DNA of 43,493 bases from Myxococcota bacterium. Lineage in GTDB: Bacteria > Myxococcota_A > UBA9042. The stretch lies in contig JBMOIG010000023.1 in assembly GCA_049317445.1 (NCBI GenBank), positions 1 through 43,493 of the forward strand. Reading direction: 5' to 3'. Below the pieces are notes generated by a model. That model made no database searches. It was not told the DNA's origin and saw only the letters and a program-made list of their open reading frames with translations. The stretch's first letter is position 1, and each line of letters begins with the position of its first letter. The translations under genes were made by a program, and so were the position numbers. Positions 2,668 to 22,599 of the stretch are shown here, one piece after another.

Positions 2668-4215
2668 ATGAGCATTCTTGTCCTGATCGTCGTCTTCGCG
2701 ACCCTGCTGCTGTTCAGCTTCCTGTTGCTGCTGATGACGCGGTACCGCCGCTGCCCTTCGAACCAGATTCTGGTGGTGTACGGCAAGGTGGGCGGCGGCC
2801 AGTCGGCCCGGTGCCTGCACGGTGGCGGCGCGTTCATCTGGCCGTTGATTCAGAATTACGCATACTTGGCGCTAGACCCGCTGCAGATCGAGATCCCCCT
2901 GTCGGGTGCACTCTCTGCCGAGAACATCCGCGTCAACGTCCCGTCCGTGTTCACCGTCGCCATCGGCACGGAGAACGAGCTGATGAACGCCGCGGCCGTC
3001 CGTCTGCTGGGGCTGACCCGCCAGCAGATCATCGACCAGGCGCGCGACATCATCTTTGGCCAGCTGCGTCAGGTGATTGCGGGGCTGAAGATCGAGAACA
3101 TCAACCGCGACCGAGACACGTTCCGCGAGTCGATCAAGGAGGGTCTGGAGCCCGAGCTGCGCAAGATCGGCTTGGTGCTGATCAACGTGAACATCACGGA
3201 CATCACGGATGAATCCGGGTACATCGAGGCGATTGGCCGCAAGGCTGCGTCCGAGGCCATCCAGCAGGCCGTAATCGACGTCGCTGAGCAGCAGAAGCGC
3301 GGCGCGATCGGCGTGGCCAACGCTGAGCGAGAGCGCGCGGTTTCGGTGGCAGACGCTGAGCGCGACCGGCAGATCGGCGTGACCAAGGCCCAGCAGGAGC
3401 AGGCGATCGAGGTCGCCAATCTGGAGCGCGACCGCGTCATCGGTGAGCAGCGGGCGTCCTTGGAGCGGGAATCGTCGGTCAAGGAAGCCGAGCAGCAGAA
3501 GCGCGTGCGCGTGGCCGATGCCGACGCACAGGCGGTCGAGGGCGAGAACAAGGCCCAGGGCCGGATCGCCGCCGTCAACGCCGACCTGCAGGTGCGGCAG
3601 GCCGAGGCGATGCAGCGCGCAGAGACCCGCCGACGTGAGGCGGAAGCGGCCGTTCTGCAAGCGCAATACATCGCGCAGACCGCGGCCGCCACTGAGCTGG
3701 CCAAGAAGATCGAGGCTGAGAAGCGCGCTGAGGTCGAGGCTGTCGCGAAGGCCGAAAAGGCCAAGATCGTGGTCGACGCCGAAGCCGATGCAGAGCGCGT
3801 CAAGATCGCCGCTCTGGCGCAGGCCGCCGCCATCTTCGCCAAGCTGGATGCCGAGGCCCGCGGCAACTACGAGACGCTGCGCCGCAAGGGCGAGGGTCTG
3901 CGCGAGATCATCCAAGCGACTGGCGGTTCCAGTCAGGCCTTCCAGCTGCTGATGCTCGAGCACATGGACCACCTGGCCGACAAGGCATCGGAAGCCATCC
4001 AGAACATCAAGTTCGACAAGGTGGTGGTCTGGGACAGCGACAAGGGCGACGGCAAATCCGCGACCGCCAACTTCCTGAAGTCGATGGCGTCTACGCTGCC
4101 CCCGGTGCTGACGATGATGCGCGACATCGGCGGCGTCGAGATGCCCGAGTATCTGGGCAAGCTCTCGGATCCCAAGGAAGAAAAGAAGGACGCCGAAGAG
4201 AAGCCGACCGTCTAG
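2668..4215 (+). CDS. Flotillin family protein (SPFH/band-7 domain plus long Ala/Glu-rich coiled coil; YqiK/FloT-like)
   Basis: 515 aa. An N-terminal TM anchor and SPFH domain (ILVVYGKVGGG...IRVNVPSVFTVAIGTE) are followed by an extended EA-rich coiled coil and a conserved C-terminal tail. GGAG RBS before ATG 2668. Confidence 0.85.
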   Translation: MSILVLIVVFATLLLFSFLLLLMTRYRRCPSNQILVVYGKVGGGQSARCLHGGGAFIWPLIQNYAYLALDPLQIEIPLSGALSAENIRVNVPSVFTVAIGTENELMNAAAVRLLGLTRQQIIDQARDIIFGQLRQVIAGLKIENINRDRDTFRESIKEGLEPELRKIGLVLINVNITDITDESGYIEAIGRKAASEAIQQAVIDVAEQQKRGAIGVANAERERAVSVADAERDRQIGVTKAQQEQAIEVANLERDRVIGEQRASLERESSVKEAEQQKRVRVADADAQAVEGENKAQGRIAAVNADLQVRQAEAMQRAETRRREAEAAVLQAQYIAQTAAATELAKKIEAEKRAEVEAVAKAEKAKIVVDAEADAERVKIAALAQAAAIFAKLDAEARGNYETLRRKGEGLREIIQATGGSSQAFQLLMLEHMDHLADKASEAIQNIKFDKVVVWDSDKGDGKSATANFLKSMASTLPPVLTMMRDIGGVEMPEYLGKLSDPKEEKKDAEEKPTV

Positions 4216-4218
4216 GTC

Positions 4219-4956
4219 CTACAGCGGCTGCTCCGGGTCTGCCTCAGGCGTTTCAGGTACTTCGGACAGAAGCTGGGCCTCAGGCTTGTCGGCGTCGGGT
4301 GCTTCCGGAATGGCGTTGGTAATGCGCGCGCCCTGCAGGGCCCGGTTGCCGTTGATCGCCGCAATGTGCACGTCCATCGTGTGGCCGCTTGCGTCGACCT
4401 TCATCGAGACGAAGTCGTCCACGCTCCAGTCCAGGCGCGCGACGTAGGTGCGCTGCGGCGTGACGATGCGCATCCGGCTGGCGCTACGACTGCCGTCTTC
4501 CTGTGTACAGATGGCCACTTGGGTGCGGACGCCGTCCCAGTCCGCGCCCGTGCTTGACCGCCAGTACACCCGCTGGTCGCCTGCAATGCCGCGCACCACG
4601 GGGCCGATCCGGTCGTCCGTGGCTGCGCCGTGGACCTCCAGACCAAGCGGCTCGATGCGTTCGATTTCGCCGCAGTCCAGCGAGAGGTAGCCATCCCACT
4701 GCAGCGGGCTGGTTTGGCCGCGGTCGGCACCGTCTGAGGCTGGAAAGCCCCACCGCACCGTGACCGTGACGCGCCGAGCATCGGCCAAGGCAGCACCGAC
4801 CGGCCGAATGGGAACCTCGACCTTGGCAGCAACGGGGGGCGGCTTCGGGGTTTCGCGCCCCAGGTCACCGGCGAACCAGATCGCAGCCCAGCCCACCAGC
4901 GCGGCCACCACGAGCCACGCCCCTGCCGGCTTGAGCATGCGGATCACTATCGCCAT
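4219..4956 (-). CDS. hypothetical membrane-anchored protein
   Basis: Start MAIVIRMLKPAGAWLVVAALVGWAAIWFAG has a TM/signal anchor. The rest of the frame upstream is antisense to the MepA-like gene, so I take the start as ATG 4956. Convergent with the flotillin gene. No recognisable domain. Confidence 0.5.
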   Translation of the reverse strand: MAIVIRMLKPAGAWLVVAALVGWAAIWFAGDLGRETPKPPPVAAKVEVPIRPVGAALADARRVTVTVRWGFPASDGADRGQTSPLQWDGYLSLDCGEIERIEPLGLEVHGAATDDRIGPVVRGIAGDQRVYWRSSTGADWDGVRTQVAICTQEDGSRSASRMRIVTPQRTYVARLDWSVDDFVSMKVDASGHTMDVHIAAINGNRALQGARITNAIPEAPDADKPEAQLLSEVPETPEADPEQPL

Positions 4957-5161
4957 GCATCCTCCCCTGAATTGTTCGATGCCTCCACCCTTCACCCTAG
5001 GGATCCAAGGCCGGGCGCGCAAGTCGCCTTTGCTGTCTCGGAGGCTACCCTGATCACAAAACCTCAAGAGCTTCGCTTTGTTCCCATCAAGATCAACCCG
5101 TTTCTTGCCAACCCGGACCTCCACAGGCATGTTCCGGGGCTGCGGGAGGGCTGGCTTGTAC

Positions 5162-6901
5162 ATGATCCGGCACAGGCTCCAGAGGGCAGGCAGTGGCGGT
5201 CGATGGACCGCGGCGCTGCTGACTACCTTGGCGATCTTGGCCCCCGGCCCTGTGGTGGCCCTGAGCCTTCCGCCTGACCCCCCAGAGAGTGCTGAAGCTG
5301 CCGCAGACGAGCCCCCAGGGCTACAGGTCGACGAGGTTGTTGAGCCTTCGCTCTCGACCGGCGATACCTCTCGCGGTGAGCTGCGCGGCGGTGTCGAAGT
5401 GCCCACGGCGGCGCCAGGACTCCAGCGGCTGTCCGTGGTTGCGCGGCGTGGCACGGGTTGGGGAACTCGCGATCTGGTCTCGCTGATTGTGCGCGTGGCC
5501 GACGAGCTGGCGCGGCTGCCCGACCACCAGACCGTGCCGCTGCGCGTCGGCAACCTGTCTCGCCGTCAGGGTGGCGACTTGCGCTGGAGCCACTCGCACG
5601 CCTCAGGGCGCGACGCAGACTTCGCGTTCTACCTGCTCAATGCCGATGGCGAGCCGACGATGCCCGATGGCTATGTCGCTCTGGACGGATTGGGGCAGGG
5701 CAGGGTTCGCCACAAGCCGGTGAGCTTCGACATCTCCCGCAACTGGAACGCCGTGCGGGCGCTGTTGGTCGACTCGCAAGTCCAGGTGCAGCATCTGTTT
5801 ATCGCCGTGCCGCTGCGGCAGCTTCTGCTCAGCCACGCGCGCGCTCAGGGCGAGCCGGAGTGGCTGGTGGAGCGTGCGTCTCTGGTGCTCAGCGAGCCGG
5901 CGTACTCTGGACGCCACGACGACCACCTGCACATCCGCCTGTACTGCAACCGCGACGACCGGTTGGCGGGCTGCATCGACGAGGGCCCTCGCTGGTCGTG
6001 GGTGACGACGTTCGAGCCCGAGCTCAAGCGGCACGTCAGCGATTTGATGGCGGAATTGGGAGAGCCCGATCTGCACCGCCGCGTCGAAGCCGTTCGTCGT
6101 CTGGCCGTCTTTCAGCGCGACCCGCGGGTGGTCGATGCGCTGGTCTGGGCCGCATCGAGTGGCGTGCCGGAGCTGCGCTGGACCGCTTTGGACGGGCTCG
6201 CCCGCTTTCGCCGTGCTGAGGCGTTTGCGCCCCTGATGGCGGCGGCGAGGCGTGAGCCTGATGGTGCAGTCACCCAAGAGTTGTTGGCGGCGGCGATTCG
6301 TCTGGCGCGGCCGGCGAACGCAGGTGACCTCTACGCGCTGCTGCAGGAAGACGCCGGCGGGCTTTCAGGGCGACTGGACGTCCAGCAGCGGTCGGTCCTG
6401 CGGCAAGTGGTCGTACGCGCCGTGCGGCCGTGGCTGATCGAGTCGGCGGTGGCTCCGGTTCTGCTGGTGTTGAGCGACCCCGACGTGACGACGCGGCGGG
6501 CCGCGCTGCGGACCCTCGAGCACCTGGCGAACCGACGGTTTGCCAGCACATCCGACGTGTTGACGTGGCGTTGGCAGGCCGAGGGGCAGGACCGTGAAGA
6601 CTGGCTCGCCGAGGGCTTTGTCGCGCGCGGCTTGCCGCAGGGCCTGTCGTCGCCCGAGCTGATCGCCCTGGTCGGCAACCGCGACCCGACGCTCGCTGCC
6701 AACGCGGAGGCCTTGCTTCGCACGCGTTTGGGGGGGCCGGGAGAGATGGACCTCACGCCCGTGCGCCGCGTGCGCGCGTGGAAGCGCTGGTGGGACCTGA
6801 ATCAGCACCGCTTTGGCATCGCGGACATCGACCACGCCGCGATCACCGCGCAGCTCGATGCCGCAGGCGCGTCCCTACGGACCCCAGCAGCGCAGGAGTA
6901 G
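5162..6901 (+). CDS. Penicillin-insensitive murein endopeptidase (MepA-like, peptidase M74) fused to a C-terminal HEAT-repeat domain
   Basis: Signal peptide (MIRHRLQRAGSGGRWTAALLTTLAILAPGPVVALS). Motifs WSHSHASGRDADF and GRHDDHLHIRLYC match the MepA Zn-binding H-x-H...D and HxxHxHVRL signatures. The ~300-aa C-terminus has PBS-lyase/HEAT-like repeats (RVEAVRRLAVFQRDPRVVDALVWAAS..., TRRAALRTLEHLANRR). The start is uncertain; ATG 5129 is an alternative. Confidence 0.7.
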   Translation: MIRHRLQRAGSGGRWTAALLTTLAILAPGPVVALSLPPDPPESAEAAADEPPGLQVDEVVEPSLSTGDTSRGELRGGVEVPTAAPGLQRLSVVARRGTGWGTRDLVSLIVRVADELARLPDHQTVPLRVGNLSRRQGGDLRWSHSHASGRDADFAFYLLNADGEPTMPDGYVALDGLGQGRVRHKPVSFDISRNWNAVRALLVDSQVQVQHLFIAVPLRQLLLSHARAQGEPEWLVERASLVLSEPAYSGRHDDHLHIRLYCNRDDRLAGCIDEGPRWSWVTTFEPELKRHVSDLMAELGEPDLHRRVEAVRRLAVFQRDPRVVDALVWAASSGVPELRWTALDGLARFRRAEAFAPLMAAARREPDGAVTQELLAAAIRLARPANAGDLYALLQEDAGGLSGRLDVQQRSVLRQVVVRAVRPWLIESAVAPVLLVLSDPDVTTRRAALRTLEHLANRRFASTSDVLTWRWQAEGQDREDWLAEGFVARGLPQGLSSPELIALVGNRDPTLAANAEALLRTRLGGPGEMDLTPVRRVRAWKRWWDLNQHRFGIADIDHAAITAQLDAAGASLRTPAAQE

Positions 6902-6963: not shown

Positions 6964-7752
6964 TCAACCGGCGATACGGGTGTTGACCAGATACGTGATC
7001 AAGTAATCGAACACGAAGATCCCGATCGCGCTGGTGACCACGCTGCCGTTGACCGCACGTCCCACACCGGTCGCGCCCCCTTCCACCGACAAGCCGTAGT
7101 AGCAGGACACGACGCTGATCGAGCCGCCGAAGCACGCGGCTTTGGCCAGTCCGGTGTAGTACTCGCCCAACAGCTGACTCTCGAAGACGCCGCGAAAGAA
7201 GACACGGTAGTCGACGTCGAGCAGCAGCTCGCTGGTCAGCGCGCCTCCGATCAGCGCGAAAAGGTCGCCCAGCGCCGTCAGCAGCACCAGCATCACCACC
7301 ATCGCCAGAAAGCGAGGCACGACCAAGTGGTGCATCGGATCGATGGCGAGCGCCCGCAAAGCGTCGATTTGCTCGGTGACCTTCATGGTGCCGAGCTCAG
7401 CCGTGTTGTTGGCGCCCACTCGACCCGAGAACATCAGGCCAATCAGCACGGGGCCGATCTCCGCCAGCACCGCATAGCCTGCACCCCAGCCCAGCAGCCC
7501 CGTCGCGCCCGTCTGCCGCACATACGCCCCCGTCTGGATCACCATGATGGCGCCGGTGAACAGTGCGGTCAGGATGACGATGGGATAGCTCTTGACGCCG
7601 ACCTTGTAGAAATTCAGCCAGGTTTCGGGCCCGTCGAACCGCGGCGGCACCATCGCCCGCAGGATGCGCCAGAGCGTCAGCAGAACGCCGCCCAGAATCT
7701 CGGACGCCTGCAGGAAGTTGCTGCCCAACAGGGCGAGGCCGCGACGGATCAT
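6964..7752 (-). CDS. mlaE: MlaE-family ABC transporter permease
   Basis: 263 aa with a typical MlaE/Ttg2B core (EQIDALRALAIDPMHHLVVPRFLAMVV...). The ATG at 7752 overlaps the upstream ATPase stop (ATGA). The rest of the long ORF above 7752 is antisense to the ATPase gene. Confidence 0.85.
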   Translation of the reverse strand: MIRRGLALLGSNFLQASEILGGVLLTLWRILRAMVPPRFDGPETWLNFYKVGVKSYPIVILTALFTGAIMVIQTGAYVRQTGATGLLGWGAGYAVLAEIGPVLIGLMFSGRVGANNTAELGTMKVTEQIDALRALAIDPMHHLVVPRFLAMVVMLVLLTALGDLFALIGGALTSELLLDVDYRVFFRGVFESQLLGEYYTGLAKAACFGGSISVVSCYYGLSVEGGATGVGRAVNGSVVTSAIGIFVFDYLITYLVNTRIAG

Positions 7753-8528
7753 GCCGGGCCTCCGTCGTGAGTGAACGAGAGATCGACGCCGACATCGCGC
7801 TGGAAGAACTCGTGGACAATCGGGTCGCTGCTGAGCAGGGCGTCGTCCGCGGTTCCCGAGAAGCGAACCTGGCAGTCGTACAGCAGCACGTAGCGGTCGC
7901 ACACCGCACGCATCCGATCGACGTCGTGGCTGACGATGATCGACGACGACCCCTGCGCGATCTGCAAGTCTCGAATCAGGTTGAAGATCTTCGACGAGGT
8001 CACGGGGTCCAGACCGGCCGTGGGGTCGTCGTAGAACACAAGCTCGGCGTTCGCGATGGTCGCCCGCGCCAGTCCGACGCGTTTGCGCATGCCGCCCGAC
8101 AGCTCGTTCGGCATCAGCCCGGCGACCAGGGGCAGACCGACCTCGTTGAGGCGCTGCTGCACCCTGTTGGCGATCTCGGGCGCCGTCACCGCCCCGTCCT
8201 GCGCCAGCGGAAAGGCGATGTTCTCGCCCACGGTCATGAAGTCGAACAGCGCGTAATTCTGGAAGGAAAGTCCGATTCGGGTGCGCAGCTTCTGCCGGTC
8301 CTTCTCGGCCAACTGCCGCAAGTTCTGGCCCAGGACCTCGATCTCGCCACGGTCTGGCGCCAGCAGTCCGCAGCACAGCTTGACGAAGACGGACTTGCCG
8401 CAGCCGCCGGGTCCGATCAGCCCGACAATCTCTCCAGCGCGCAGCTCGAAGTCGATACCGTCCAGCACGCAGACGCCTTCGAAGCGCTTGCCCAGACCCT
8501 TGACGCGCAGCACGACCTCCTGGCTCAT
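7749..8528 (-). CDS. mlaF: MlaF-like ABC transporter ATP-binding protein
   Basis: Walker A GPGGCGKS, signature LSGGMRKRVGLARA, Walker B LVFYDDPTAGLD and an H-loop SHD. 259 aa. Overlaps the upstream lipoprotein gene by 4 nt. Confidence 0.9.
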   Translation of the reverse strand: MSQEVVLRVKGLGKRFEGVCVLDGIDFELRAGEIVGLIGPGGCGKSVFVKLCCGLLAPDRGEIEVLGQNLRQLAEKDRQKLRTRIGLSFQNYALFDFMTVGENIAFPLAQDGAVTAPEIANRVQQRLNEVGLPLVAGLMPNELSGGMRKRVGLARATIANAELVFYDDPTAGLDPVTSSKIFNLIRDLQIAQGSSSIIVSHDVDRMRAVCDRYVLLYDCQVRFSGTADDALLSSDPIVHEFFQRDVGVDLSFTHDGGPA

Positions 8529-9691
8529 CGCGTCGCCTCGCTGTGTTGCAGGCGGGCGATGGCTTGGCGGGCGACGGCAGTCTCGCCGGGCTCGATGGGT
8601 GTCAGCGTCGCGATGTCGGCAAAGCAGCGGTCCCGCGCGGCGGGGTCGGGCTCCTCAGAGCAGATGCGGCGGTCGTTGGCGACTTCCTCGCGGCGACGCG
8701 CTTCAACGACGCTGACGACCTCTCGATAGGTGCCCAGCGCGTCGTCAGGGTGGCCTCGCTCCTCCTGAATCTCTGCCAGCGTGACCAGCAGAGCCGGCAG
8801 CTCCGTGGCGTGCATCATCATCTTCGGCAGCTCGCGCATGTGCCGTTCGGCCCGTTCCAGATCCTTGAGTTCATAGCGATAGAGATCAACCAGCCGCCGC
8901 GTGGCGTCCAGATGCGCCGTCGTCGTGTAGGTGCCGAAGACCAAACTGGTTTCCCAGGTTGCTACCACCTGTTCCAACGTCCGGGCCTCGTCGCGGGGCC
9001 TCGCCAGCGCCCGCTGCAGCCGCGCCTGCAACATCCGGGCGTCCAGGGCTGTCGGGTCCTGTCCGTGGCGGTCCTGCAGGCGTTGCAGCAACACCAGGGC
9101 TGTCTCGCGGGCCCTTGGCGGGTCGGTCTCGGCCATCAGCTCGGCGGCGCGCAGCAGCAGGTTGTCGGCCAGATCGGAGTCAGGGGCGGCCACCTCCAAC
9201 TCCCTGAAATGCTGAATCATGGCGTCGCGTTGAACTGGCCCGCGTCGGGCGTAGCGAACCAGAACGTCCACCGCTCTGGCCGAGGCGGCTTCCTCCGGGG
9301 CGCGTGTGACCAGCGCGTCCAGCATCCGCAGGGCGTCGGGCGCACGGTCGAGCTCGTCCAGCCGCAGCTCAGCCGCGTGCAGCAGAGCTCGCGCTCGCGT
9401 GGCTCGCGTGTCAGCGTCAATGGCCAGTGCGTCGTAGCAGACGGCGGCTTGCAGAAACTGCCTGTCCCGCGACGGGGTCTCGCAGGCCAACAGCGCCGCG
9501 TCGTCGGCGTCGCGTGGGTCGGTGGCGGTGTGACGCAATTCCGCATAGCGGGCGGCGGCTTCGGTGTGCCCGCCGTCCAAGTACAGGTGCTCGGTGGCGT
9601 AAAACTCAGCTTCCCAGCGCACCAGCTGCGGGCTTTGGGCGCAGGCGGCAAGCAGCAAGGGCAGGGCGTGAAGGAGGGGACGGCAGCGCAT
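8525..9691 (-). CDS. TPR-like helical repeat lipoprotein (hypothetical), in operon with MlaF/MlaE-like genes
   Basis: Signal peptide with a lipobox (LLLAACAQS). The protein is all-alpha and Ala/Leu/Arg-rich with TPR-like periodicity. It starts 12 nt after the stop of the giant Cys-rich gene and overlaps mlaF by 4 nt. Confidence 0.6.
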   Translation of the reverse strand: MRCRPLLHALPLLLAACAQSPQLVRWEAEFYATEHLYLDGGHTEAAARYAELRHTATDPRDADDAALLACETPSRDRQFLQAAVCYDALAIDADTRATRARALLHAAELRLDELDRAPDALRMLDALVTRAPEEAASARAVDVLVRYARRGPVQRDAMIQHFRELEVAAPDSDLADNLLLRAAELMAETDPPRARETALVLLQRLQDRHGQDPTALDARMLQARLQRALARPRDEARTLEQVVATWETSLVFGTYTTTAHLDATRRLVDLYRYELKDLERAERHMRELPKMMMHATELPALLVTLAEIQEERGHPDDALGTYREVVSVVEARRREEVANDRRICSEEPDPAARDRCFADIATLTPIEPGETAVARQAIARLQHSEATR

Positions 9692-9703
9692 CGCGCGCGC
9701 AGG

Positions 9704-12700
9704 CTAATACCCAAGCGTCAGGTTGTCGATCTGCCACGTCGGCGTGCCGATCATCGCGGTCGAGGTCAGCTGGAACCCGAGCTGGATCGCCCCCTTGCCG
9801 CCGAGCGGCACCTTGATCGCGACGTTCTGCGTGCCGGTGGTGACGTTGAGCAACTGGACCTCGCTCCAAGTCGAACCGCCGTCGCTGGACAGCCGCACCG
9901 AGAGCGTCGAGTTGCTGGGCAGCGGGAAGGGCGCTCCATTGTTCGCATAGGTCAACGCAAACTTCAGCGTGGCGGCCTGATCGGCGCCGGTCTCGATGAT
10001 CGGGCTGGTCAGGAAGGCGCTGACCGACACGAAATTCGGGAGCTGGGCCGATGCACTCAACTGGGCGAGCTTGTTGCTCTTGTTGTTTTGGATCAGCTGC
10101 CAGTTGGCTGGGCTGAAGCCGGGCAGTGCTTGCGCCGACCAGCCGCCCTCCGCAAAGGTCTTCAGGTACTGGTCGAAGAGCTCGGTCCACGGCAGCTTGC
10201 TCGCGTCGCAGGCGTCTCCCGTGCCGTTGCCGTTCGAGTCCTTCTGGTCCGGGTTGACGACCAACGGGCAGTTGTCCGACTTGTCGGCGATCCCGTCGTT
10301 GTCGTCGTCCAGGTCGCACGCGTCGCCCTGCTTGTCGCCGTCCGTGTCCAGTTGGTCCGGGTTGACCGTGTTGACGCAGTTGTCCACGTTGTCGCACTTG
10401 GTATCGCCGTCCTGATCCGGGCAGCACTCGGGCGAGGTCGACGGCTGGTGGAAGCAAGTGCCCGATGCGCAATAGTCGACGGTGCACTTGTCGTTGTCGG
10501 CGCACTGGAAGTCTGACTTGCACGGAGCAGGGACGCACACGCCGTTCGCGCTGCATACGCTGGCGGCGTCGCACTGGCACTGGCCGCCGCAACCGTCGGA
10601 ACCGCAAGTGTTGGGCGCGCACTGGGGAACGCAGGTTCCGCCGCAGCCGCCGCACAGTTTGGTCTGGCACAAGTCGACGCAAGGGGCATCCCAGCCGGCC
10701 TGGCAGCAGAACGGATCCTGTTCACAGACGCAGGCTTCACAGCCGCAGCCGCCGCAGCCGGGGTTGGGCGTGATGGTGCAGCCGTCGTTGGGCGGGCACT
10801 CGCCGCAGTCCATGTTGCAGTTGGTGCAGGTCTCGCCTTGGGAGTCCGCGCAGATGCCGTCGCCGCAAACGGGGCCGCAGGTGCCGCAGTCCTTCGAGCA
10901 GTTCTTGCAGGTCTCGCTGAGGTTGGGGTCATAGCTGGACGCTTCGCACTGGCCGTCGCCGCACACGGGGAAGCACGGACCGCAATCGGTCGCGCAGTCC
11001 TTGCAGTTTTCACCGGCCTCGCACTTGCCGTTGCCGCAGGTCGGCGGGCAAAACATGACCCCAGCGCAGTCGATCTTGCAGTTGGCGCAGTCCTCGCCGT
11101 GGGGTGAGTCGCAGGTGCCGTCACCGCACACCGGCGGGCAGACGCCGCAGTCCTTGTTGCAGGTCTTGCAGTCTTCCTTGGCCTCGCAATTGCCGTTGCC
11201 GCACACGGGCGGACAAACGCCGCAGTCGTTGGCGCAGGTGGCGCAACTCTCTCCCAAGGCAGCGTCGCAGGCGCCGTCACCGCACACCGGCTGGCACGCA
11301 CCGCAGTCCTGGGCGCAGCTGGAACAGCTCTCACCCGCGTCGCACTGGCCGTCGCCGCACGCGGTTGGGCAGTTGCCGCCGCACTGGTTCTTGCACTCGC
11401 CGACACAGATGTCGTCCCACGCCGTCGAGCAGCAGTAGTTGTCCGCCGAGCAGACGCACTGCTCGCAGGAACACCCGTCACAGCCCTGCTTGCCCGTCGC
11501 CTGGCACCCGGTCGCACACGCACCGCAGTCATTTTGGCAGGTCTTGCAGGTCTCACCCTTGGGCGTCTCGCAGATGCCGTCGCCGCACACGGGCTTGCAG
11601 ATTCCGCAATCCTGGGAGCAGGTCAAACAGGTTTCTTTGCCCGCGGAGCAGACGCCGTCGCCGCACGCCGGCGGGCACTTGCCGCAGTCCTTCGCGCAGG
11701 TCGAGCAGCTCTCCTTGCCCGCAGTGCAAACGCCGTCGCCACAGGTGGTCGGGCAGCTTCCGCAGTCCTTCGGACACGTCGAGCAGCTCTCCTTGCCCGC
11801 GGTGCAAACGCCGTCGCCGCAGGTGGTCGGGCAAATGCCGCAGTCAGGCTGGCAGGTTGAGCACGTCTCGCCCTTGGCCGGCTCGCACACCTTGTCGCCG
11901 CACTTGGGCGGGCAGCTGCCGCAGTCGATCGAGCAGCTCGAGCAGTTCTCCAGCCCAGCCACGCAGATGCCGTCGCCGCAGGTGGGCTGACAGGGACCGC
12001 AGTCCATCGGACAGGTCGAACAACTCTCCGCGTTCGCCGTGCACACGCCGTCGCCGCACACGGTGGGACAGATCCCGCAGTCCATGGGGCAGGTTGCGCA
12101 GCTTTCCTTGCCGGCCGTGCAGACGCCGTCGCCGCACTTGACGGGTTGCTGGCACCACTGCTGGTAGTCGGGGCAGCAGTCGCCGTATTGGGTGCAGACG
12201 TCGTCGCAGTAGCAGTTCTGGTCCGACCCTCCGCACTTGCCTTTGCAGGATCCGGCAGGGCAGGAACCGCAGTCATTGGGACAGGTTCCGCAGGACTCGC
12301 CGTCGCTGCATTGGCCGTCGCCGCAAATGGGCGGGCAGACGCCGCAGTCCAGCGCGCACGAGCTGCAGGTCTCGCCGAAGCCGATTTCGCACTGCTTGTT
12401 GCCGCAGAAGTTGGGGCACTGGCCGCAGTCGACCGAGCAGGTCAGGCACGTTTCGCCAGCGAACACGTCGCACGTGCCGTTACCGCAATTCGGCGGGCAC
12501 TTTCCGCAGTCGGCGGGACAGGTTGTGCACTGCTCACCAAGTGCGGCCTCGCACACGCCGTTGCCACACGCGGGGGGACATGGGCCGCAGTCGGTCCCGC
12601 AGGTCTGGCAGTTCTCGGCTTTCGACAGCTCGCAGATGCCGTTGCCGCAGTCGGACGGGCAGGTGCCGCAGTCCTTCTTGCAATTCGAGCAGTTCTCTCC

Positions 12701-13774
12701 TGCGGAGGCCAGACAGACCCCGTCGCCGCAGTACGGCTTGGGACACGTGCCGCAGTCGTTGACGCAGGTGTTGCACGTCTCGCCCAGCGCGGGCTCGCAG
12801 GTTCCGTTGCCGCACGACGGGCACTTGCCGCAATCCATCGGACATACAGTGCAATTCTCCGCCGAGCTGGGTTCGCACACGCCGTCGCCGCACTTCTGGC
12901 AGGCGCCGCAATCCTTGGCACAGCTCAGGCACGTTTCCTTCTTGCCGGGCTCGCACTTCATGTCGCCGCAAATGGCGGAGCATTCGCCGCAGTCGCCGGG
13001 GCAATACGTACAGTTCTCACCGGCTTGGGGCTGACAGGTGCCGTCGCCGCACGCCTGGCACGCGCCGCAGTCTTCCTTGCAGGTCGTGCAGTCTTCACCT
13101 GTCGAGGCAGAACACACGCCGTCGCCGCAGGTCTTGCACGCACCGCAGTCGGCAGCGCAGGTGCCACAGGTCTCGCCCGCAGCGGGGTCGCAGACGCCAT
13201 CGCCACAGACCGACGGGCACGCGCCGCAGTCGTCGGCGCAGGTGCCGCAGCTCTCGCCCGCTTGGGGCGCGCACTTGCCGTCGCCGCAGGCGGACTGACA
13301 CGGCGCGCCGCACTTGCCGCACAGTTCTGCGCATACCGCATCCCACGCCGACGAACAGCACGACGGGTCGACGTTGCACACGCAGTCCTGACAGCTGCAG
13401 CCCTGGCAACCGGCTTGGCCGGTGGGCTGGCAACCCTTGGTGTCGCCGCACGCCCCGCAGTCTTGCGGGCAGTCCGTACACGACTCGGTGGTCTCGCACT
13501 TGCCGTTGCCGCACGGCGCGGGGCAGGCGCCGCAGTCCGTCGCGCACGAGCCGCAGTCCTCGTTGGCCATGCACACACCGTCGCCGCAGTACGGCGGAGG
13601 GATGTCGGGGTCGACGATGTCGGTGGTGTCGAGATGCACGTCTTGGGCGTCCGACGCGGTGTCGCCGGGGTTACCGTACTCGGGACCCTGCAAGGTGGCG
13701 TCGTCGCCGCAAGCCGAGGCAAGGGCGGCAACGGCAAGCAAGGCGAGTCCGAGTCGAAGGCGCAAGGTAGACAT
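9704..13774 (-). CDS. Giant secreted cysteine-rich repeat protein (~33 six-Cys CGDGxC...GExCxTCxxDCGxCP repeats), C-terminal thrombospondin type-3 Ca-binding repeats and a ~190-aa C-terminal domain
   Basis: ATG 13774 with a GGGAGGA RBS. N-terminus [22 protein letters not shown] (lipoprotein-type signal). The 25-28-aa repeat occurs ~33 times. Three or four ~45-aa modules with GCxGCSCxxCVCxxDxxCCxxAWDxxC are interspersed. TSP3-like repeats: [60 protein letters not shown]. Resembles the Cys-rich repeat proteins of myxobacteria. Confidence 0.85.
10787..13588 (-). repeat. Tandem array of ~78-84-nt coding repeats (~33 copies) inside the Cys-rich gene; some adjacent copies are near-identical at DNA level (e.g. 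~11666-11821 and ~11981-12136)
   Basis: Direct reading: adjacent segments such as ...gtcgagcagctctccttgcccgcagtgcaaacgccgtcgccacaggtggtcgggca... recur with 1-3 substitutions. The protein-level periodicity is [26 protein letters not shown] / [26 protein letters not shown]. Confidence 0.8.
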
Positions 13775-13968
13775 GGCATCCTCCCGTTCGCCTCTGCGGG
13801 GGCGGGCGTCGGGTTGAGGGGCGGCGCGGTCAGGCGGCCGCCATCGAATCAAGCGACGGTTCGAAGGCTTGCGTGTACGCAAAAAACAGCCTCGCACCGG
13901 GCGACCAATAGGTTACCAGATGCAGACCGGGCTGCGCCACACGCGATTGCGGGGGAGAGGCAGAGAGA

Positions 13969-16026
13969 CTACAGACCGACGTCGGCGGCGTAGTTGACCT
14001 CGATCTCATCGGTCGGCTCAGGTACGGCCGAGAAGAAGATCGCCTCTGCATACTGCTTGCAGAGCTTTTCGTTGCACACCAGTCCGGCCGCGCAGTCACG
14101 CGTCGACTTGCAGGCCTGCGACTCGCCGGGCAGGGTTCCGCTGTCGCTGGTGCGGCAGTCGGGGGCGGCCTTGAGGTAGAAGCTGTCGGGTTTGGTCGAC
14201 TCCGCGTGCTGGACGTACTCCATCTGCTTGGTCTTTCCGCCGCGCTTGCGCACGACCTTGACCAGCGGCTTGCCGTCTTCCCAGTTGGGCGGGTGCGGCA
14301 GGCAGACCTTGATCACGCGGCCGAGGATCAGGTTGGCGACCTCTGTCAGCGCGGGGCCAAAGTCTTCTCCCTCGCAGATGTTGTAGAAGATGCCGTTCTC
14401 GCCGAAGGCCTTGGTCAGCGCGATGTACCGCGAGCCGTAGCCCGACTCGCCGCGCGCGCCTTGGCACACATACGGCACCTGCTTGGGGGCGGTGTTCTTC
14501 AGCACCGACCGGTAGTACTGCGATACGTCGATGCGCCGCTGGAAAGCGGTCGCCAAGGCGCTGGCCCCAGAGGCGTACAACGTGTCCCCGGTGATGGCCG
14601 CCACCATGACGCGGCTGGGGTCCGACTTCAGGGATCGGAATCGATTGACGAAATCATTGACCGTCGCGAAGCGGGTGTCGAACTTGATGCTCTCGAGGAT
14701 GCCCTTGTCGGCGGACGCAACGCACTTGGTGTAGTCGTCGGAGCCGACCTTGAACTTCACGCAGTCGGACAGGCACACCAGACTTGGGTTCGACACCTTG
14801 CGGATCTCGCAGCTGCCCTCGTTCAGGCCCTTGTTGCCGGCCACCGCATCGCCCAGCGACTGGCAGCGGTCCTGGACCTCAGAGGGCAGGATGCCCGCCT
14901 TGCCGGTCTTGGGATCGCCCACGATGACCTTCTTCTCCTCGGCGTTCAGGTTCGACAGCGAGATGTCCAGATTGACCGAGCAGTCGTCGTCGTCGCTGAC
15001 GAACACGATGACCAAGTAAGCGTCGTCGCGCACCAATTGCTTGTACTGGCACTTGGTCGGGTCGATCTTGCCCGTCTTGTCCTTGGTGCAGTTGATGCCG
15101 TTCGGGTCGAGCGCGTACCAGGCGGAGCGGAAGCCGCCCTCGAACTTCGACTCAGTGCTGGTGCCGGCGCCCACCGTGGCGATGCACTTGAACAGGTCCA
15201 GCGTGGGCTTGTTGGTCGGGTTGCCCTTGGCGTCCAGCGGGTGGGACTTCAGCACCGGCGGCAGCTTGTCCGACGTCGGGCAGGTCTTGGTGTCGGGCGG
15301 GAACATGCAGCCGGCGTTCTCAGGTGTGGTGCCGCCGGGGATGTAGCAGACCGACCGGCGCTCGCTGAGGGGCACGTTGGATTCGTACAGCTCCTGGCAT
15401 TCCTTGTCGCTGGTGCAGCGCTTCTCGCAGTAGGAGTTGATCGAGCAGTTCAGGTTGGTCAACAGCTGGTCCGTGCCCGGCTTGTCGCACTTCCACTTCG
15501 TGTTGCCGCCCACGGGATTCTCGTAGGTGCCGGTGCCGCCAACCGGGCACATGGACGACGGACCGACCGACGTGAACTGGTACTCGACCACGGCTTTGGT
15601 GCACTGCAGGTCGGTCAAGCAGGGCAGGCGGACCCGCTCCATGCAGTTGGGCGGAAATGCGGTTGCGGCGGAGTGCATGAACTGGCCGACCTGCTTGACC
15701 TGATTGGTCTCGACGGTCGTGCCACCCAAGTCGGAGATCTGCTGCACCGTAACGACAGCCATCTGTGCGTCGATCGTGCCCAGCGCCTGCAGGTTCTTGA
15801 TGAACTTGTCGAAACCCTTGGCGAGCTCGCGCTGCTCCTGACACATCGACGACGAGTGGTCGATCACCCAAAGGAAGTCGAGCTTCACCGCCTCCTTGTG
15901 TGACAGCTTGCTGGTGACCCGCACCTCGAAATTGTCGAGCAGGCTGTGAACGGGATAGGTGTTGCAGGTCGCGAGCAGGGGAAGCAGCACCAGGCTGACC
16001 ACAAGCAGGCGGGCGGGCTGGATCAT
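13969..16026 (-). CDS. Secreted VWA-domain lipoprotein with large Cys-rich insertions (hypothetical)
   Basis: ATG 16026 with GGAG upstream. Signal plus lipobox MIQPARLLVVSLVLLPLLATC. A MIDAS-like DxSxS (DFLWVIDHSSSM) and a later VWA-like strand (AYLVIVFVSDDDDCS). ~35 Cys. Unusually Lys-rich for this genome. Directly upstream of, and co-oriented with, the giant Cys-rich gene. Confidence 0.7.
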   Translation of the reverse strand: MIQPARLLVVSLVLLPLLATCNTYPVHSLLDNFEVRVTSKLSHKEAVKLDFLWVIDHSSSMCQEQRELAKGFDKFIKNLQALGTIDAQMAVVTVQQISDLGGTTVETNQVKQVGQFMHSAATAFPPNCMERVRLPCLTDLQCTKAVVEYQFTSVGPSSMCPVGGTGTYENPVGGNTKWKCDKPGTDQLLTNLNCSINSYCEKRCTSDKECQELYESNVPLSERRSVCYIPGGTTPENAGCMFPPDTKTCPTSDKLPPVLKSHPLDAKGNPTNKPTLDLFKCIATVGAGTSTESKFEGGFRSAWYALDPNGINCTKDKTGKIDPTKCQYKQLVRDDAYLVIVFVSDDDDCSVNLDISLSNLNAEEKKVIVGDPKTGKAGILPSEVQDRCQSLGDAVAGNKGLNEGSCEIRKVSNPSLVCLSDCVKFKVGSDDYTKCVASADKGILESIKFDTRFATVNDFVNRFRSLKSDPSRVMVAAITGDTLYASGASALATAFQRRIDVSQYYRSVLKNTAPKQVPYVCQGARGESGYGSRYIALTKAFGENGIFYNICEGEDFGPALTEVANLILGRVIKVCLPHPPNWEDGKPLVKVVRKRGGKTKQMEYVQHAESTKPDSFYLKAAPDCRTSDSGTLPGESQACKSTRDCAAGLVCNEKLCKQYAEAIFFSAVPEPTDEIEVNYAADVGL

Positions 16027-16141: not shown

Positions 16142-18052
16142 TTACCTTCTCGCCAGTAACTCGCGGACCTCGGGACCGAAGGCTTGGGCCAGCGCCGCGT
16201 TCACCTGCTCGTGCCGCGCACCGCCGTGGCCCACCAGCCGTCCCTCAGCCAGCACCCAGACCTCGTCAGCATGGGCCAGCGCCAGCCGAAGGTCGTGGAT
16301 CGCCAGCACCACCAGCGCTCCGTCGCGGTGCGCGAGATCGCCCAACTGACGCAGCAGGCGGTCGGCCTGTGGCAGGTCCAGCGAGGCGGTCGGCTCGTCC
16401 AGCAGCAGCACCGGAGCCTCCTGCGCCAGCACCATGGATAGGAAGGCGCGCTGCCGTTGCCCGCCGGACAATGTCTCGACGGGGGCGTGGCGCAGTTCCG
16501 TCAGCTCCATGCGTTGCAGCGCGCCGTCGACGGCCTTGCGGTCGCGCGCAGCCAGACGTCCCCACAGCCGCAGTGCCAGATTGCCTTGCAGGTGGGCTGT
16601 GCGGCCCAGAGCGACCAGATCTTTCGTACGAATGCCGGGTTCCGTGGTGGCCTGCTGAGGCAGGAACGCGATGCGCCGCGCGTCGGGGCGGCCAAGGCGA
16701 ACGCGGTCGTCGTCGCAGATCGCGCCCGAGGACGGCGGCATCAGGCCTGCCAGTGCGCGCAGCAGCGTCGTTTTTCCCGCGCCGTTGGGGCCGACGACGG
16801 CGACCAGTCGACCGAGGGGCCAGGACAGATCCATAGAAGAGACAGCGGGTTGCGGGGTGTCCGGGTGTTGCAGCGTCAGTGCGCGGCAAGACAGCGCCGG
16901 TCTCAGCGAGGGGGCGGCGGCGAGGTCCATGGCAGGTTCGGCGGCAGAGGCGGCAACGACGGGCGCGCAAGGGGCGTTCACGGCTCGCTTGTGCCGCCGC
17001 TTCGGGCCCAAGCCAAGCAGCGCAACCAGCACCGGAGCACCCGCAAGGGCCGTCAGGATGCCCACCGGCAGCTCGGCGGGCGAAACGACCACGCGCGCCA
17101 GGGCGTCCATCCACGCCAGAAACGCACCGCCCGCCAGCACCGCGGCAGGCACAAGGGCGCGGTGGTCGCGACCCAGAACTGCCCGCAGCCCATGGGGAAC
17201 CAGCAGCCCCACGAAACCGATGATGCCCGCCAGCGACACGGCGACCGCGGCCAGCGCGCTGGACCACCACACGGCGCTGCGGCCCAACCGTCGCTCGTCC
17301 ACACCCACGCCCTGCGCCGCATCGGCACCCAAGGCCAGCGCGTTGAGCCGCGGCGCCTGTGCCACGGCGAATCCGGTCGCGAGGACCAACACGACCGCGC
17401 CCGGCACCAGCGCCCACAGCGACGGCACCGAGACGCCGCCCATCAACCAGGAGGTGGCCGCACGCAACCGCACGTCGCTCAAGCGGTACAGCGCAAACGA
17501 GGTCGCCGCGCCGCCGAATGCGGTCAGCACAAGGCCCGCCAACAGCACCCGCTCTGGCCGCAGCGGACCGCCCGCGCGGGCGATGGCGAACGTCAGCGAC
17601 ACGGCCAGCAGCGCGCCGACCAGCGCGGCGGCCGGCTGCAGAAATGGCAGGATCTGCTGCGGATCCGCGCCGACCCATGCGCCCACCGTCAGGCCCAGCG
17701 GCGCCGCCAGCACGGCTGCCAGCGTCGCGCCCGAGCTCGTGCCGACCAGATAGGGATCCGCAATCGGGTTGCGCGTGGCGGCCTGCAGCAGCACGCCGGA
17801 CAGCGAAAGGGTCGAGCCCACCAGAAACGACCCCAGCACCCTCGGCCAGCGCACATCCCACAGGATCGCCCGCGCCAAGGTCGCCGTCGGACTGTCCGGG
17901 CCAAGGGCGTCGGCTGCCAGCTGCAGCGGTCCCTGCGCCGAGGGCCCGACCGCAAGCGCGCCCAAGATCGAGAACAGAGCGAGCGCAAGTCCGCCCGTCC
18001 ACGCGAGCATCAGCGCGGTGCGGGTCGTCAGGCGTGGCGCGTGCAGGGTCAC
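16142..18052 (-). CDS. Fused FecCD/BtuC-type permease and BtuD/FepC-type ATPase (single in-frame ORF) of a cobalamin/iron-complex ABC importer
   Basis: The N-terminal ~340 aa are a FecCD permease (LAWTGGLALALFSILGALAVGPS..., ...GILTALAGAPVLVALLG). These continue without a stop into an ABC ATPase (VVGPNGAGKTTLLRALAGL, LSGGQRQRAFLSMVLA, LLLDEPTASLD, AIHDL). The GTG start at 18052 overlaps the btuF-like stop (GTGA) and GGAGG lies upstream. Confidence 0.7.
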   Translation of the reverse strand: MTLHAPRLTTRTALMLAWTGGLALALFSILGALAVGPSAQGPLQLAADALGPDSPTATLARAILWDVRWPRVLGSFLVGSTLSLSGVLLQAATRNPIADPYLVGTSSGATLAAVLAAPLGLTVGAWVGADPQQILPFLQPAAALVGALLAVSLTFAIARAGGPLRPERVLLAGLVLTAFGGAATSFALYRLSDVRLRAATSWLMGGVSVPSLWALVPGAVVLVLATGFAVAQAPRLNALALGADAAQGVGVDERRLGRSAVWWSSALAAVAVSLAGIIGFVGLLVPHGLRAVLGRDHRALVPAAVLAGGAFLAWMDALARVVVSPAELPVGILTALAGAPVLVALLGLGPKRRHKRAVNAPCAPVVAASAAEPAMDLAAAPSLRPALSCRALTLQHPDTPQPAVSSMDLSWPLGRLVAVVGPNGAGKTTLLRALAGLMPPSSGAICDDDRVRLGRPDARRIAFLPQQATTEPGIRTKDLVALGRTAHLQGNLALRLWGRLAARDRKAVDGALQRMELTELRHAPVETLSGGQRQRAFLSMVLAQEAPVLLLDEPTASLDLPQADRLLRQLGDLAHRDGALVVLAIHDLRLALAHADEVWVLAEGRLVGHGGARHEQVNAALAQAFGPEVRELLARR

Positions 18053-19041
18053 TTCGCCTCCAACGATGGAAATGCTTCGGGGTGCAGGGCTCGCGCGATC
18101 TGCTCGACCCCCAGCACCAGACGGGGACCTGGGCGGCTGACCCAATCGGACCGCAGCGGATGCACGCGACCCTGGCGCACCGCACGCAGCGCCTGCCATC
18201 CCGGTCGGGCGCGAACCGATGCGAGCGACTGCGGCGCCTCGATGGCGTCGGCGTCGGCCAGGAGAATCGCGTCGGGGTCGCCCACGAGCACCGCCTCGGT
18301 CGAGACCTGGAACCAAGGCATCGCTGCGTCGGCGAACAGGTTCTGTCCACCCGCGGCCTCCAGCACCGCGTGGCCGAACGCCTCGCGCGACACCGTGAAG
18401 GGCCGCGCCCCGTCCCCTGCGTCCATTTCATAGAACACTCGCGGCTTGGGCAGTCCCGCAACTCGCCGCCGGATGTCCTCGAGCTGACGGGCAAACGCCC
18501 GCTGGAGCACGTGCCCTGCCTCGGGTTGACCGCAAGCCCGCGCCACGTCACCCAGCGTCTCTTGCACTTGATGAAGATCCTTGGGGGAGTAGCCCAAGTA
18601 CGGCACCCTGGCGGCGTCCAGCGCGGTCCGCAGTGCGGCGGGCGGAAAGTGGGTCAGGACGAGGTCGGGGTGGGTGGCCAGAATCGCCTCGGCGTTGGGC
18701 ACGAAGCCTTGCGCGGCGGGGATGGTGCGGGCCTGTGACGGGTAGTCGCTCCAGCCGTCGCGCAAGACGACAGCGTCGCCGCAGCCGACCGCAAACAGGA
18801 TCTCGGTCAGGGCCGGCGACAGCGAGACGATGCGGCGCGCGGGAGAGGCGAGCTGAATCGTGCGGCCCTGGTGGTCCGTCAGCGTCACCGTGGCAGAAGG
18901 CGCAGGTGTCGCAGGGACTTGCGCGTGGGTGGTAGCAGCGGGCGGAAGCGACGGCGTGGCCGCTGGGCGTGAGCACGCCACCAGGCAGACCACCGCCGCG
19001 AGCACGAGCCTTCCGGACGCGCGTGACCTCGACGTCACCAT
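18049..19041 (-). CDS. btuF: BtuF/FhuD-like periplasmic substrate-binding lipoprotein of an ABC importer
   Basis: ATG 19041. Lipoprotein signal MVTSRSRASGRLVLAAVVCLVAC. Cluster-A binding-protein features (RIVSLSPALTEILFAVGCGDAVV..., HPDLVL, GYSPKDL). The symbol is assigned from the adjacent cobalamin riboswitch and TBDR. Confidence 0.75.
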   Translation of the reverse strand: MVTSRSRASGRLVLAAVVCLVACSRPAATPSLPPAATTHAQVPATPAPSATVTLTDHQGRTIQLASPARRIVSLSPALTEILFAVGCGDAVVLRDGWSDYPSQARTIPAAQGFVPNAEAILATHPDLVLTHFPPAALRTALDAARVPYLGYSPKDLHQVQETLGDVARACGQPEAGHVLQRAFARQLEDIRRRVAGLPKPRVFYEMDAGDGARPFTVSREAFGHAVLEAAGGQNLFADAAMPWFQVSTEAVLVGDPDAILLADADAIEAPQSLASVRARPGWQALRAVRQGRVHPLRSDWVSRPGPRLVLGVEQIARALHPEAFPSLEAK

Positions 19042-22526: not shown

Positions 22527-22599
22527 GCGACGCTCCCTACGCCTCGGACGAACTCCGGCGCAGGCGACTCACAATGCAATGGGCACAGTGCATGGCCCT

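Follow-up and report, generated by a model that had tools for sequence, protein, structure and literature searches.

The TPR lipoprotein–MlaF–MlaE triad of a Myxococcota genome is probably a fragment of a larger Mla/MCE-type lipid transporter operon, next to a separate pair of Cys-rich lipoproteins

The locus described here lies in a 43,493-nt stretch of DNA from a Myxococcota bacterium (contig JBMOIG010000023.1; hereafter, the window, meaning the whole stretch analysed), and comprises five open reading frames (ORFs), all on the minus strand, spanning positions 6964–16026. In the direction of transcription they encode a 685-aa Cys-rich lipoprotein with a metal-ion-dependent adhesion site (MIDAS)-like DxSxS motif, originally a "VWA" candidate (13969–16026), a giant 1356-aa Cys-rich lipoprotein (9704–13774), a 388-aa TPR-superhelix lipoprotein (8525–9691), the 259-aa ATP-binding cassette (ABC) ATPase MlaF1 (7749–8528) and the 262-aa MlaE-family permease MlaE1 (6964–7752). 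The successive intergenic spacings are 194 nt, 12 nt, a 4-nt overlap and a second 4-nt overlap, and the ORF coordinates thus confirm the tightly spaced, co-directional arrangement recorded in a first-pass annotation of this DNA. The genes for the two Cys-rich proteins are referred to below as unit A, and the triad TPR–MlaF1–MlaE1, with the TPR gene first, as unit B. The window has a G+C content of ~67%, and its nearest relatives are metagenome-assembled genomes (MAGs) of uncultured freshwater Myxococcales/Myxococcota, apparently from lakes (isolate names Baikal and Erken); the genome loci and contigs compared are labelled L001–L111. Purifying selection acts on all five genes, with ratios of non-synonymous to synonymous substitution rates (dN/dS) of 0.03–0.13 in comparison with L006. 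The MIDAS-like, giant and TPR proteins each have a signal peptide and a lipobox Cys (LLATC, LASAC and LLAAC, respectively), called by direct reading of the sequence and by conservation of the Cys among homologues.

MlaE1 matches PF02405 over profile positions 4–211 of 212 (E = 1.5e-68, 231 bits, cut-off 22.5), and scores 191.3 with the NCBIfam model TIGR00056, slightly under the cut-off of 212.2. MlaF1, the gene of which overlaps mlaE by 4 nt, matches ABC_tran (E = 5.4e-31, 108.5 bits); its best NCBIfam match is MlaF (PRK11831) at 156 bits, below the equivalog cut-off of 441, and it is 36% identical to Escherichia coli MlaF. The TPR protein shows the tandem helix-turn-helix repeats of a superhelix; a set of 5.8 billion proteins yielded only 14 close homologues of it, while a profile search reached 348 cluster representatives. 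MlaE orthologues at 62–75% identity far outnumber these close TPR homologues. MlaE1 is 75–84% identical within its clade, 65–74% identical to the first (E1) of two tandem MlaE paralogues in the sister Myxococcota loci L021, L022 and L025, and 54% identical to the E1 of Polyangium, and only 32–35% identical to the second paralogue (E2); judged by sequence identity, it is the orthologue of E1. The dN/dS values are 0.034 for MlaE1 and 0.087 for MlaF1.

The genes TPR–MlaF–MlaE are adjacent and in the same order in 15 of 15 species-level genome loci, in all four extra contexts and in all outgroups that have the TPR gene, and the TPR stop codon overlaps the mlaF start in all nine annotated loci. Among all loci read, only these three genes are invariably linked. 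No description of a lipoprotein–MlaF–MlaE unit was found in the family libraries and literature searched, and within that scope the suggestion that this tight unit lacks a characterised counterpart holds.

No MCE domain (PF02470) was found in the 43.5-kb window by Pfam scans of candidate ORFs or by tblastn with MlaD, as the first-pass annotation had noted. A conserved 245-aa ORF (4219–4956, minus strand) was considered as a cryptic MCE protein and rejected, as it was negative against the MlaD profile. A PF02470 protein is, however, encoded with the orthologous transporter operons of sister lineages (L021–L023, L025, L034 and L109). In L025 (Myxococcota JABWCM01), the genes run IMPase–TPR–MlaF1–MlaE1–MlaE2–MlaF2–MlaD on one strand, with overlaps or tiny gaps, and the same seven-gene set occurs in L021–L023 and L034, with MlaD convergent. 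The sister-lineage MlaD proteins (341–348 aa) have an N-terminal transmembrane helix, the MCE domain PF02470 and a Helical_needle domain (PF28544). The TPR proteins of the complete operons are homologous to that of the window (hhalign probability 97.9%). In cultured Polyangium aurulentum, E1–E2 and MlaD are accompanied by one ATPase only, and neither TPR nor F1 is present. Pfam families for MlaB (STAS) and MlaC were found neither in the window nor in the complete operons.

Two traits ascribed to the system at first pass, a missing MCE partner and a lipoprotein in the position of MlaD, are not upheld by these comparisons. In E. coli, mlaD comes after mlaE, whereas the TPR gene precedes mlaF and, in the sister operons, is found together with a genuine MlaD; the TPR protein therefore neither occupies the MlaD slot nor substitutes for MlaD. 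Since sister lineages encode MlaD within this operon, the absence of an MCE gene from the window reflects rearrangement and fragmentation of the locus and is no trait of the system. The seven-gene order of L025 is probably that of the ancestral operon, a view held together with the explanation as a whole set out below. In the annotated complete operons the IMPase-family gene (L021 5353–6150; L022 5329–6153; L023 5338–6114; L025 7346–8158) overlaps the TPR start by 4–8 nt, and L017 retains an IMPase gene at 9123–9914; this coupling may hint at the substrate or the regulation of the transporter.

The two ATPases of the complete operons carry complementary motif changes, as seen in an alignment of 21 F1 sequences, seven F2 sequences (L021, L022, L023, L025, L031, L035 and L038), the single ATPase of Polyangium and E. 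coli MlaF. All 21 F1 proteins combine a Walker B motif of the form [FY]DDP, in which the catalytic Glu is replaced by Asp, with a canonical LSGGM signature; the window copy reads YDDP. All seven F2 proteins combine FDEP with a degenerate signature, [IF]GDG[LM] (for example, IGDGL), and E. coli MlaF is canonical at both motifs (FDEP and LSGGM). Each ATP site of a nucleotide-binding-domain dimer is made of the Walker motifs of one subunit and the signature of the other, and in an F1/F2 heterodimer, therefore, one site would be doubly degenerate and the other would match the consensus. The motifs thus suggest a heterodimer with one dead ATP site (F1 DDP with F2 IGDGL) and one live site (F2 DEP with F1 LSGGM).

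Loss of the Walker B catalytic Glu is a hallmark of the degenerate site in heterodimeric ABC transporters (PMC7544095, PMC5216877). In transporters of this kind, such as TM287/288, TAP1/2, BmrCD and Rv1273c/72c, the Glu is likewise lost in one subunit and the signature is non-canonical in the other, so that both defects fall in the same composite site (PMC7544095, PMC5216877, PMC12038006). Those proteins, however, are type IV exporters in which the transmembrane and nucleotide-binding domains are fused, whereas the present system has an MlaE-type (type VII-like) fold and its ATPases are polypeptides of their own. A literature search returned no report of asymmetry in an Mla/MCE ATPase. The retention of DDP by the window F1 under purifying selection speaks for its continued function with an F2 encoded at another locus.

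In a rough neighbour-joining tree built on E1 and F1, the window, L005–L019 (with L017) and L024 form one clade, sister to L025. Searches with tblastn found no E2, F2 or MlaD in the window or within ±10 kb of 15 loci of this clade. L017 retains the IMPase gene upstream and is already without E2–F2–MlaD, and the loss of the downstream half of the operon therefore preceded the arrival of the giant and MIDAS-like pair. An orphan MlaE2, 64% identical to the E2 of L025, comes from samples ERZ1426826 and ERZ1426635, the two in which the TPR gene of the L014 MAG was likewise found. It is accompanied by an S41/PDZ protease and a secreted coiled-coil/PEGA protein before it, and by a 911–968-aa Dicty_CTDC-type Cys-rich lipoprotein (968 aa in these two samples) after it (L026 1959–5608; L110 5889–15753; L111). 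The same context recurs in a second species, a clade member other than the species of the window, and no ATPase or MCE gene was found near the orphan MlaE2 in either of the two species.

Both MlaE paralogues adjoin genes for large Cys-rich lipoproteins, the two Cys-rich proteins being unrelated in sequence. Directly downstream of the orphan MlaE2 is a gene for an IS200-type Y1 transposase (L110 10899–11156; L111 8109–8366), consistent with ongoing rearrangement. A metagenome scan with an MlaD alignment yielded F2–MlaD pairs without MlaE (L031 and L035) and solitary MlaD genes (L029, L030 and L036), and dispersal of the operon is therefore common. The two detached pairs were considered as genes of the split clade and discarded: tetranucleotide comparison does not assign them, the shared homologous sequence being a confounder. 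In L032 (7764–9115) and L033, an intact MlaD lies beside truncated E2/F2 (a C-terminal F2 piece of 113 aa and an E2 that is scrambled at its N-terminus), reflecting either pseudogenization of the ABC half or an assembly error.

In comparison with the triad, unit A is far less constant. The MIDAS-like/giant pair lies directly upstream of the triad in about 8 of about 15 clade loci (L005–L008, L010, L011, L014 and L018). In L013 and L016, it is separated from the triad by 6–9 kb of opposite-strand genes. In L012, L015 and L019 it is absent, its place being occupied by genes for an unrelated 739-aa lipoprotein and an OmpA-TSP3 protein, and it is also missing from L024, although the latter has the downstream MepA/Band_7 synteny of the window; L017 has no giant gene, and its MIDAS-like gene survives only as a fragment ~10 kb upstream. 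No outgroup has the pair. On the tree, these states amount to at least three losses or disruptions of the giant adjacency, and to zero losses of the triad. The pair is a derived neighbour, and the proposal that the five genes form one conserved module does not survive the comparison: with the pair adjacent in ~8 of ~15 loci, displaced in two and absent from five as well as from the outgroups, the repeat protein, the "VWA" protein and the MlaEF pair are largely not co-conserved. Furthermore, the MIDAS-like gene shares its neighbourhood with the upstream FecCD transporter gene about as consistently as with the Mla genes, so that in so narrow a clade gene order says little about function. In the window itself, unit A is probably co-transcribed with unit B, because the gap between the giant and TPR genes is 12 nt.

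The giant protein contains 245 Cys residues (18%) and 30 six-Cys repeats of 25–32 aa (~26 aa) with the form CG[DN]GxC..GExCxxCxxDCGxC, and Tandem Repeats Finder reports periods of 75–81 nt in its gene. It matches TSP_3 (52.0 bits, cut-off 25), Somatomedin_B (40.9 bits, cut-off 23.1) and, marginally, choice_anch_J (30.7 bits, cut-off 30); the Somatomedin-B domain is single, the TSP3 repeat is present twice, and the choice-of-anchor J beta-sandwich is C-terminal. Between the repeat arrays, a GCxGC(S/G)CxxCVCxxDxxCCxxxWDxxC module (the GCxC..W module; residues ~108–163, 752–806 and 1005–1040) occurs three times. The isolated ~26-aa repeat matched no Pfam or NCBIfam family at E ≤ 1, known Cys-rich repeat families such as the Myxococcus Cys-rich repeat, EGF and Dicty_CTDC included, and no PDB sequence at E ≤ 10. 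Searches of PDB sequences with the repeat and with the GCxC..W module gave nothing significant, the best match being SmtA (E = 0.4); the first copy of the module resembles the CxCxxCxCxVDP core of this cyanobacterial metallothionein (1jjd), at the same non-significant E-value. Homologues of 1668–1931 aa with the same domain set are encoded in L007, L010, L011, L014 and L018, and the giant gene has a dN/dS of 0.13. Cys-rich proteins of this general kind are common in myxobacteria.

For the 685-aa protein, the lipobox reads LLATC-N and is conserved as GC-NDYPVHSLLD in six homologues, and the DxSxS motif is D56-H-S58-S-S60, with D56, S58 and S60 invariant in the same six; the gene has a dN/dS of 0.08. 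The protein matches NF052240, a MIDAS adhesin family, locally over 48 residues (30.9 bits, cut-off 700), and all six homologues do likewise at residues ~47–95 (best E = 5.3e-8), covering ~48 of 378 model positions. No Pfam VWA match at E ≤ 1 was obtained with any of the six homologues, a profile of the family gave only spurious antibody matches among PDB sequences, and hhalign against a bona fide VWA_CoxE protein returned a probability of 0.3%. A single-sequence AlphaFold2 model was unusable (predicted local distance difference test score, pLDDT, 35). Of the name "VWA lipoprotein", the lipobox and the motif stand, and we downgrade "VWA" to MIDAS-like, with the fold unproven. Bdellovibrio MIDAS-family adhesins (Bd0875; NF052240; PMC11003981) offer a parallel, both in the concept of a surface-exposed adhesin and in the local sequence context of DxSxS; the window protein differs in its long Cys-rich insertions, and the short match does not demonstrate a VWA fold.

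The earlier description of both large proteins as exported, Cys-rich and adhesin-like agrees with their signal peptides and lipoboxes and with the MIDAS motif, TSP3 and Somatomedin_B matches. From these features, including the Ca-binding TSP3 repeats, the pair would be surface or matrix adhesin-like lipoproteins.

Between the MIDAS-like and giant genes, a hairpin followed by a U6 run (13878–13936, minus strand), found by RNA folding 33 nt past the MIDAS-like stop codon, is a possible intrinsic terminator. Its folding energy is -32.3 kcal/mol with a z-score of only -1.6, and a consensus terminator scan did not flag it. On this weak evidence, it could possibly end the MIDAS-like transcript, making that gene a transcription unit separate from the giant gene. 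Across the whole interval, a promoter/terminator scan gave a number of sites no higher than expected by chance.

Taken together, the explanation that we favour, with moderate confidence and as one joint claim, is that unit B is a fragment of a myxobacterial Mla/MCE-type lipid transporter and that unit A is a separate, lineage-specific adhesin-like pair, the two being neighbours by descent and not one machine. The translationally coupled unit B would derive from the first half of the seven-gene operon. The core of the transporter would be a heterodimeric permease (E1/E2) with a heterodimeric ATPase (F1/F2), the single active ATP site of which would drive lipid movement through the MlaD ring and its C-terminal helical needle, MlaD being anchored in the inner membrane and reaching towards the outer membrane. 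The TPR lipoprotein would probably provide docking or a scaffold in the periplasm or at the outer membrane, on the model of PqiC or MlaA. In the freshwater clade, the operon would have been broken up: TPR–F1–E1 would have stayed together, MlaE2 would have moved to another locus (as in the sister MAG), and MlaF2 and MlaD would be expected elsewhere in the genome, so that the partners are supplied in trans. Unit A would have come to lie upstream after displacement of the IMPase gene, and in the window the MIDAS-like and giant genes would be co-transcribed with the triad without depending on it for function.

Several observations weigh against this explanation. The ±10-kb surroundings of the 15 loci yielded neither MlaF2 nor MlaD for any split-clade genome, and loss instead of relocation is possible. 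The assignment of the orphan MlaE2 to the same MAG as the TPR gene rests on two shared sample accessions and not on a bin listing. The gap from the giant to the TPR gene, 12 nt in the window, is 20–120 nt in six or seven other genomes, and the co-transcription of unit A, real in a sub-clade, could reflect an acquired functional coupling. The single ATPase of Polyangium, which presumably homodimerizes, carries a "degenerate" LGDGM signature, and the signature alone may therefore not kill a site. Finally, the probable scaffold role of the TPR lipoprotein, like its placement in the periplasm or at the outer membrane, is purely a matter of inference from analogy.

The missing partners could instead mean that MlaF2 and MlaD were lost, and that TPR–MlaF1–MlaE1, with or without the orphan MlaE2, is an MCE-independent transporter in which the TPR protein has taken over the periplasmic role. 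The empty ±10-kb flanks of the 15 clade loci, the orphan MlaE2 with neither ATPase nor MCE gene alongside in two species and the strong purifying selection on the triad would fit such a system. We nevertheless consider it unlikely, since F1 keeps the Walker B Glu-to-Asp change, which is sensible only with an F2 partner, since every complete operon encodes both the TPR protein and MlaD, so that the former is no replacement for the latter, and since the F2–MlaD pairs detached from MlaE elsewhere indicate that dispersal occurs without loss. It is also established that every characterized MlaE-family permease works with MCE proteins; to our knowledge, MCE transmembrane helices pack on each of them (MlaFEDB, Mce1 and TGD). 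Outright decay, with the triad as a non-functional leftover of the broken operon, would account for the fragmentation, for an F1 without the catalytic Glu and for the truncated E2/F2 beside intact MlaD in L032 and L033, but is scarcely credible given that the ORFs are intact with their 4-nt overlaps kept, that MlaE1 remains 75–84% identical across the clade and that dN/dS is 0.03–0.12 for the triad; moreover, the DDP motif is ancestral, being also present in the complete operons.

A different possibility is that all five genes constitute one dedicated module, in which the MlaFE-like pair and the TPR protein handle, lipidate or assemble the giant and MIDAS-like lipoproteins. This would suit the shared direction of the genes, the position of the giant gene 12 nt from TPR and its adjacency in ~8 loci across both main sub-branches, the frequent role of TPR proteins as chaperones or scaffolds, and the large Cys-rich lipoprotein that MlaE2 also adjoins in two species. 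We regard it as very unlikely: the triad occurs without the giant/MIDAS-like pair in L012, L015, L019, L024, L017 and all outgroups (where IMPase is translationally coupled to it instead), insertions of 6–9 kb of opposite-strand genes between giant and TPR are tolerated in L013 and L016, and the synteny of a narrow clade, in which FecCD accompanies the MIDAS-like gene about as closely as the Mla genes do, counts for little. In addition, the Cys-rich neighbour of MlaE2 is unrelated to the giant, such proteins are frequent in these genomes, and MlaE-family transporters move lipids and not proteins. We give little credence to a re-wired system in which MlaF2 and MlaD are gone and TPR–MlaF1–MlaE1 with the orphan MlaE2 acts independently of MCE proteins, functionally tied to the flanking Cys-rich lipoproteins (for example, through the supply or extraction of lipid needed to anchor or release them); if true, it would set a precedent among MlaE-family transporters, both in dispensing with an MCE partner and in having a role linked to proteins.

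Mla/MCE systems have a central part in the lipid homeostasis of the outer membrane, and those known so far are either homodimeric (Mla and TGD) or heterodimeric in the permease with a single ATPase (Mce). E. coli MlaFEDCB, which with MlaA serves retrograde/anterograde phospholipid transport, resembles the window in pairing a PF02405 permease with an MlaF-like ATPase, in the order F then E, from overlapping or abutting genes, and resembles the sister lineages in the MlaD-type MCE protein, with its N-terminal transmembrane helix, that is encoded next. In contrast to the E. coli homodimers, the myxobacterial operon has two permease paralogues, 32–35% identical, and two ATPase paralogues with complementary degenerate motifs. 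It also differs in that no MlaB (STAS) or MlaC was seen in the window or the complete operons, in its MlaD, which is 341–348 aa long and bears a helical needle (E. coli MlaD has 183 aa), in the TPR lipoprotein and IMPase genes coupled upstream, and, for the window locus, in being without an MCE gene.

Actinobacterial Mce systems (YrbEA/YrbEB, MceG and MceA–F) share the heterodimeric MlaE-family permease with tandem paralogues, and their ATPase and other components can be encoded distantly (PMC13492129). They have a single MceG homodimer, six MCE proteins and accessory proteins of the Mam/LucA type, whereas here there are two ATPases, a single MCE gene and a TPR lipoprotein. The C-terminal helical needle (PF28544) of myxobacterial MlaD is shared with the trans-envelope MCE bridges PqiABC and LetAB. 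In PqiABC, the lipoprotein PqiC docks the needle at the outer membrane, and provides a model for the putative role of the TPR protein; the Pqi/Let systems nonetheless have the membrane proteins PqiA/LetA and no MlaE/MlaF ABC transporter, and PqiC is not a TPR protein. A literature search covering Mla in Myxococcus/Myxococcota, TPR proteins with MlaE and degenerate MlaF did not find this architecture described. The myxobacterial operon adds to the known systems an ATPase pair predicting one dead and one live site, and a dedicated TPR lipoprotein always translationally coupled to the gene of the ATPase with the predicted dead Walker B motif. The freshwater clade, with the machine apparently in at least two to three scattered pieces, constitutes a natural experiment on which subunits must stay together. 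For annotation, the lesson is that an orphan MlaFE should not be called MCE-less before sister genomes are checked.

Upstream of the MIDAS-like gene, an uptake cluster (16142–18427 and 20445–22568, both minus strand) encodes a TonB-dependent receptor, an unknown 456-aa protein and a FecCD permease–ABC ATPase fusion in a single ORF; a Peripla_BP_2 gene of this cluster is seen in relatives, in several of which the cluster adjoins the MIDAS-like gene. The downstream block (2668–4215, plus; 4219–4956, minus; 5078–6901, plus) is kept in the sub-branch of the window (L017 and L024), and contains an M74 (MepA-like) peptidase fused to HEAT repeats, which is convergent on mlaE, the unknown 245-aa ORF and a 515-aa Band_7/SPFH protein. 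L001 and L013 differ in having two Band_7 genes upstream of the TPR gene. L006 (CAYURO010000002.1) and L017 (CAYTLW010000004.1) are titled "uncultured Enterobacteriaceae bacterium" yet are syntenic with Myxococcales MAGs, which looks like a taxonomic mislabel; L006 is 93–98% identical in protein.

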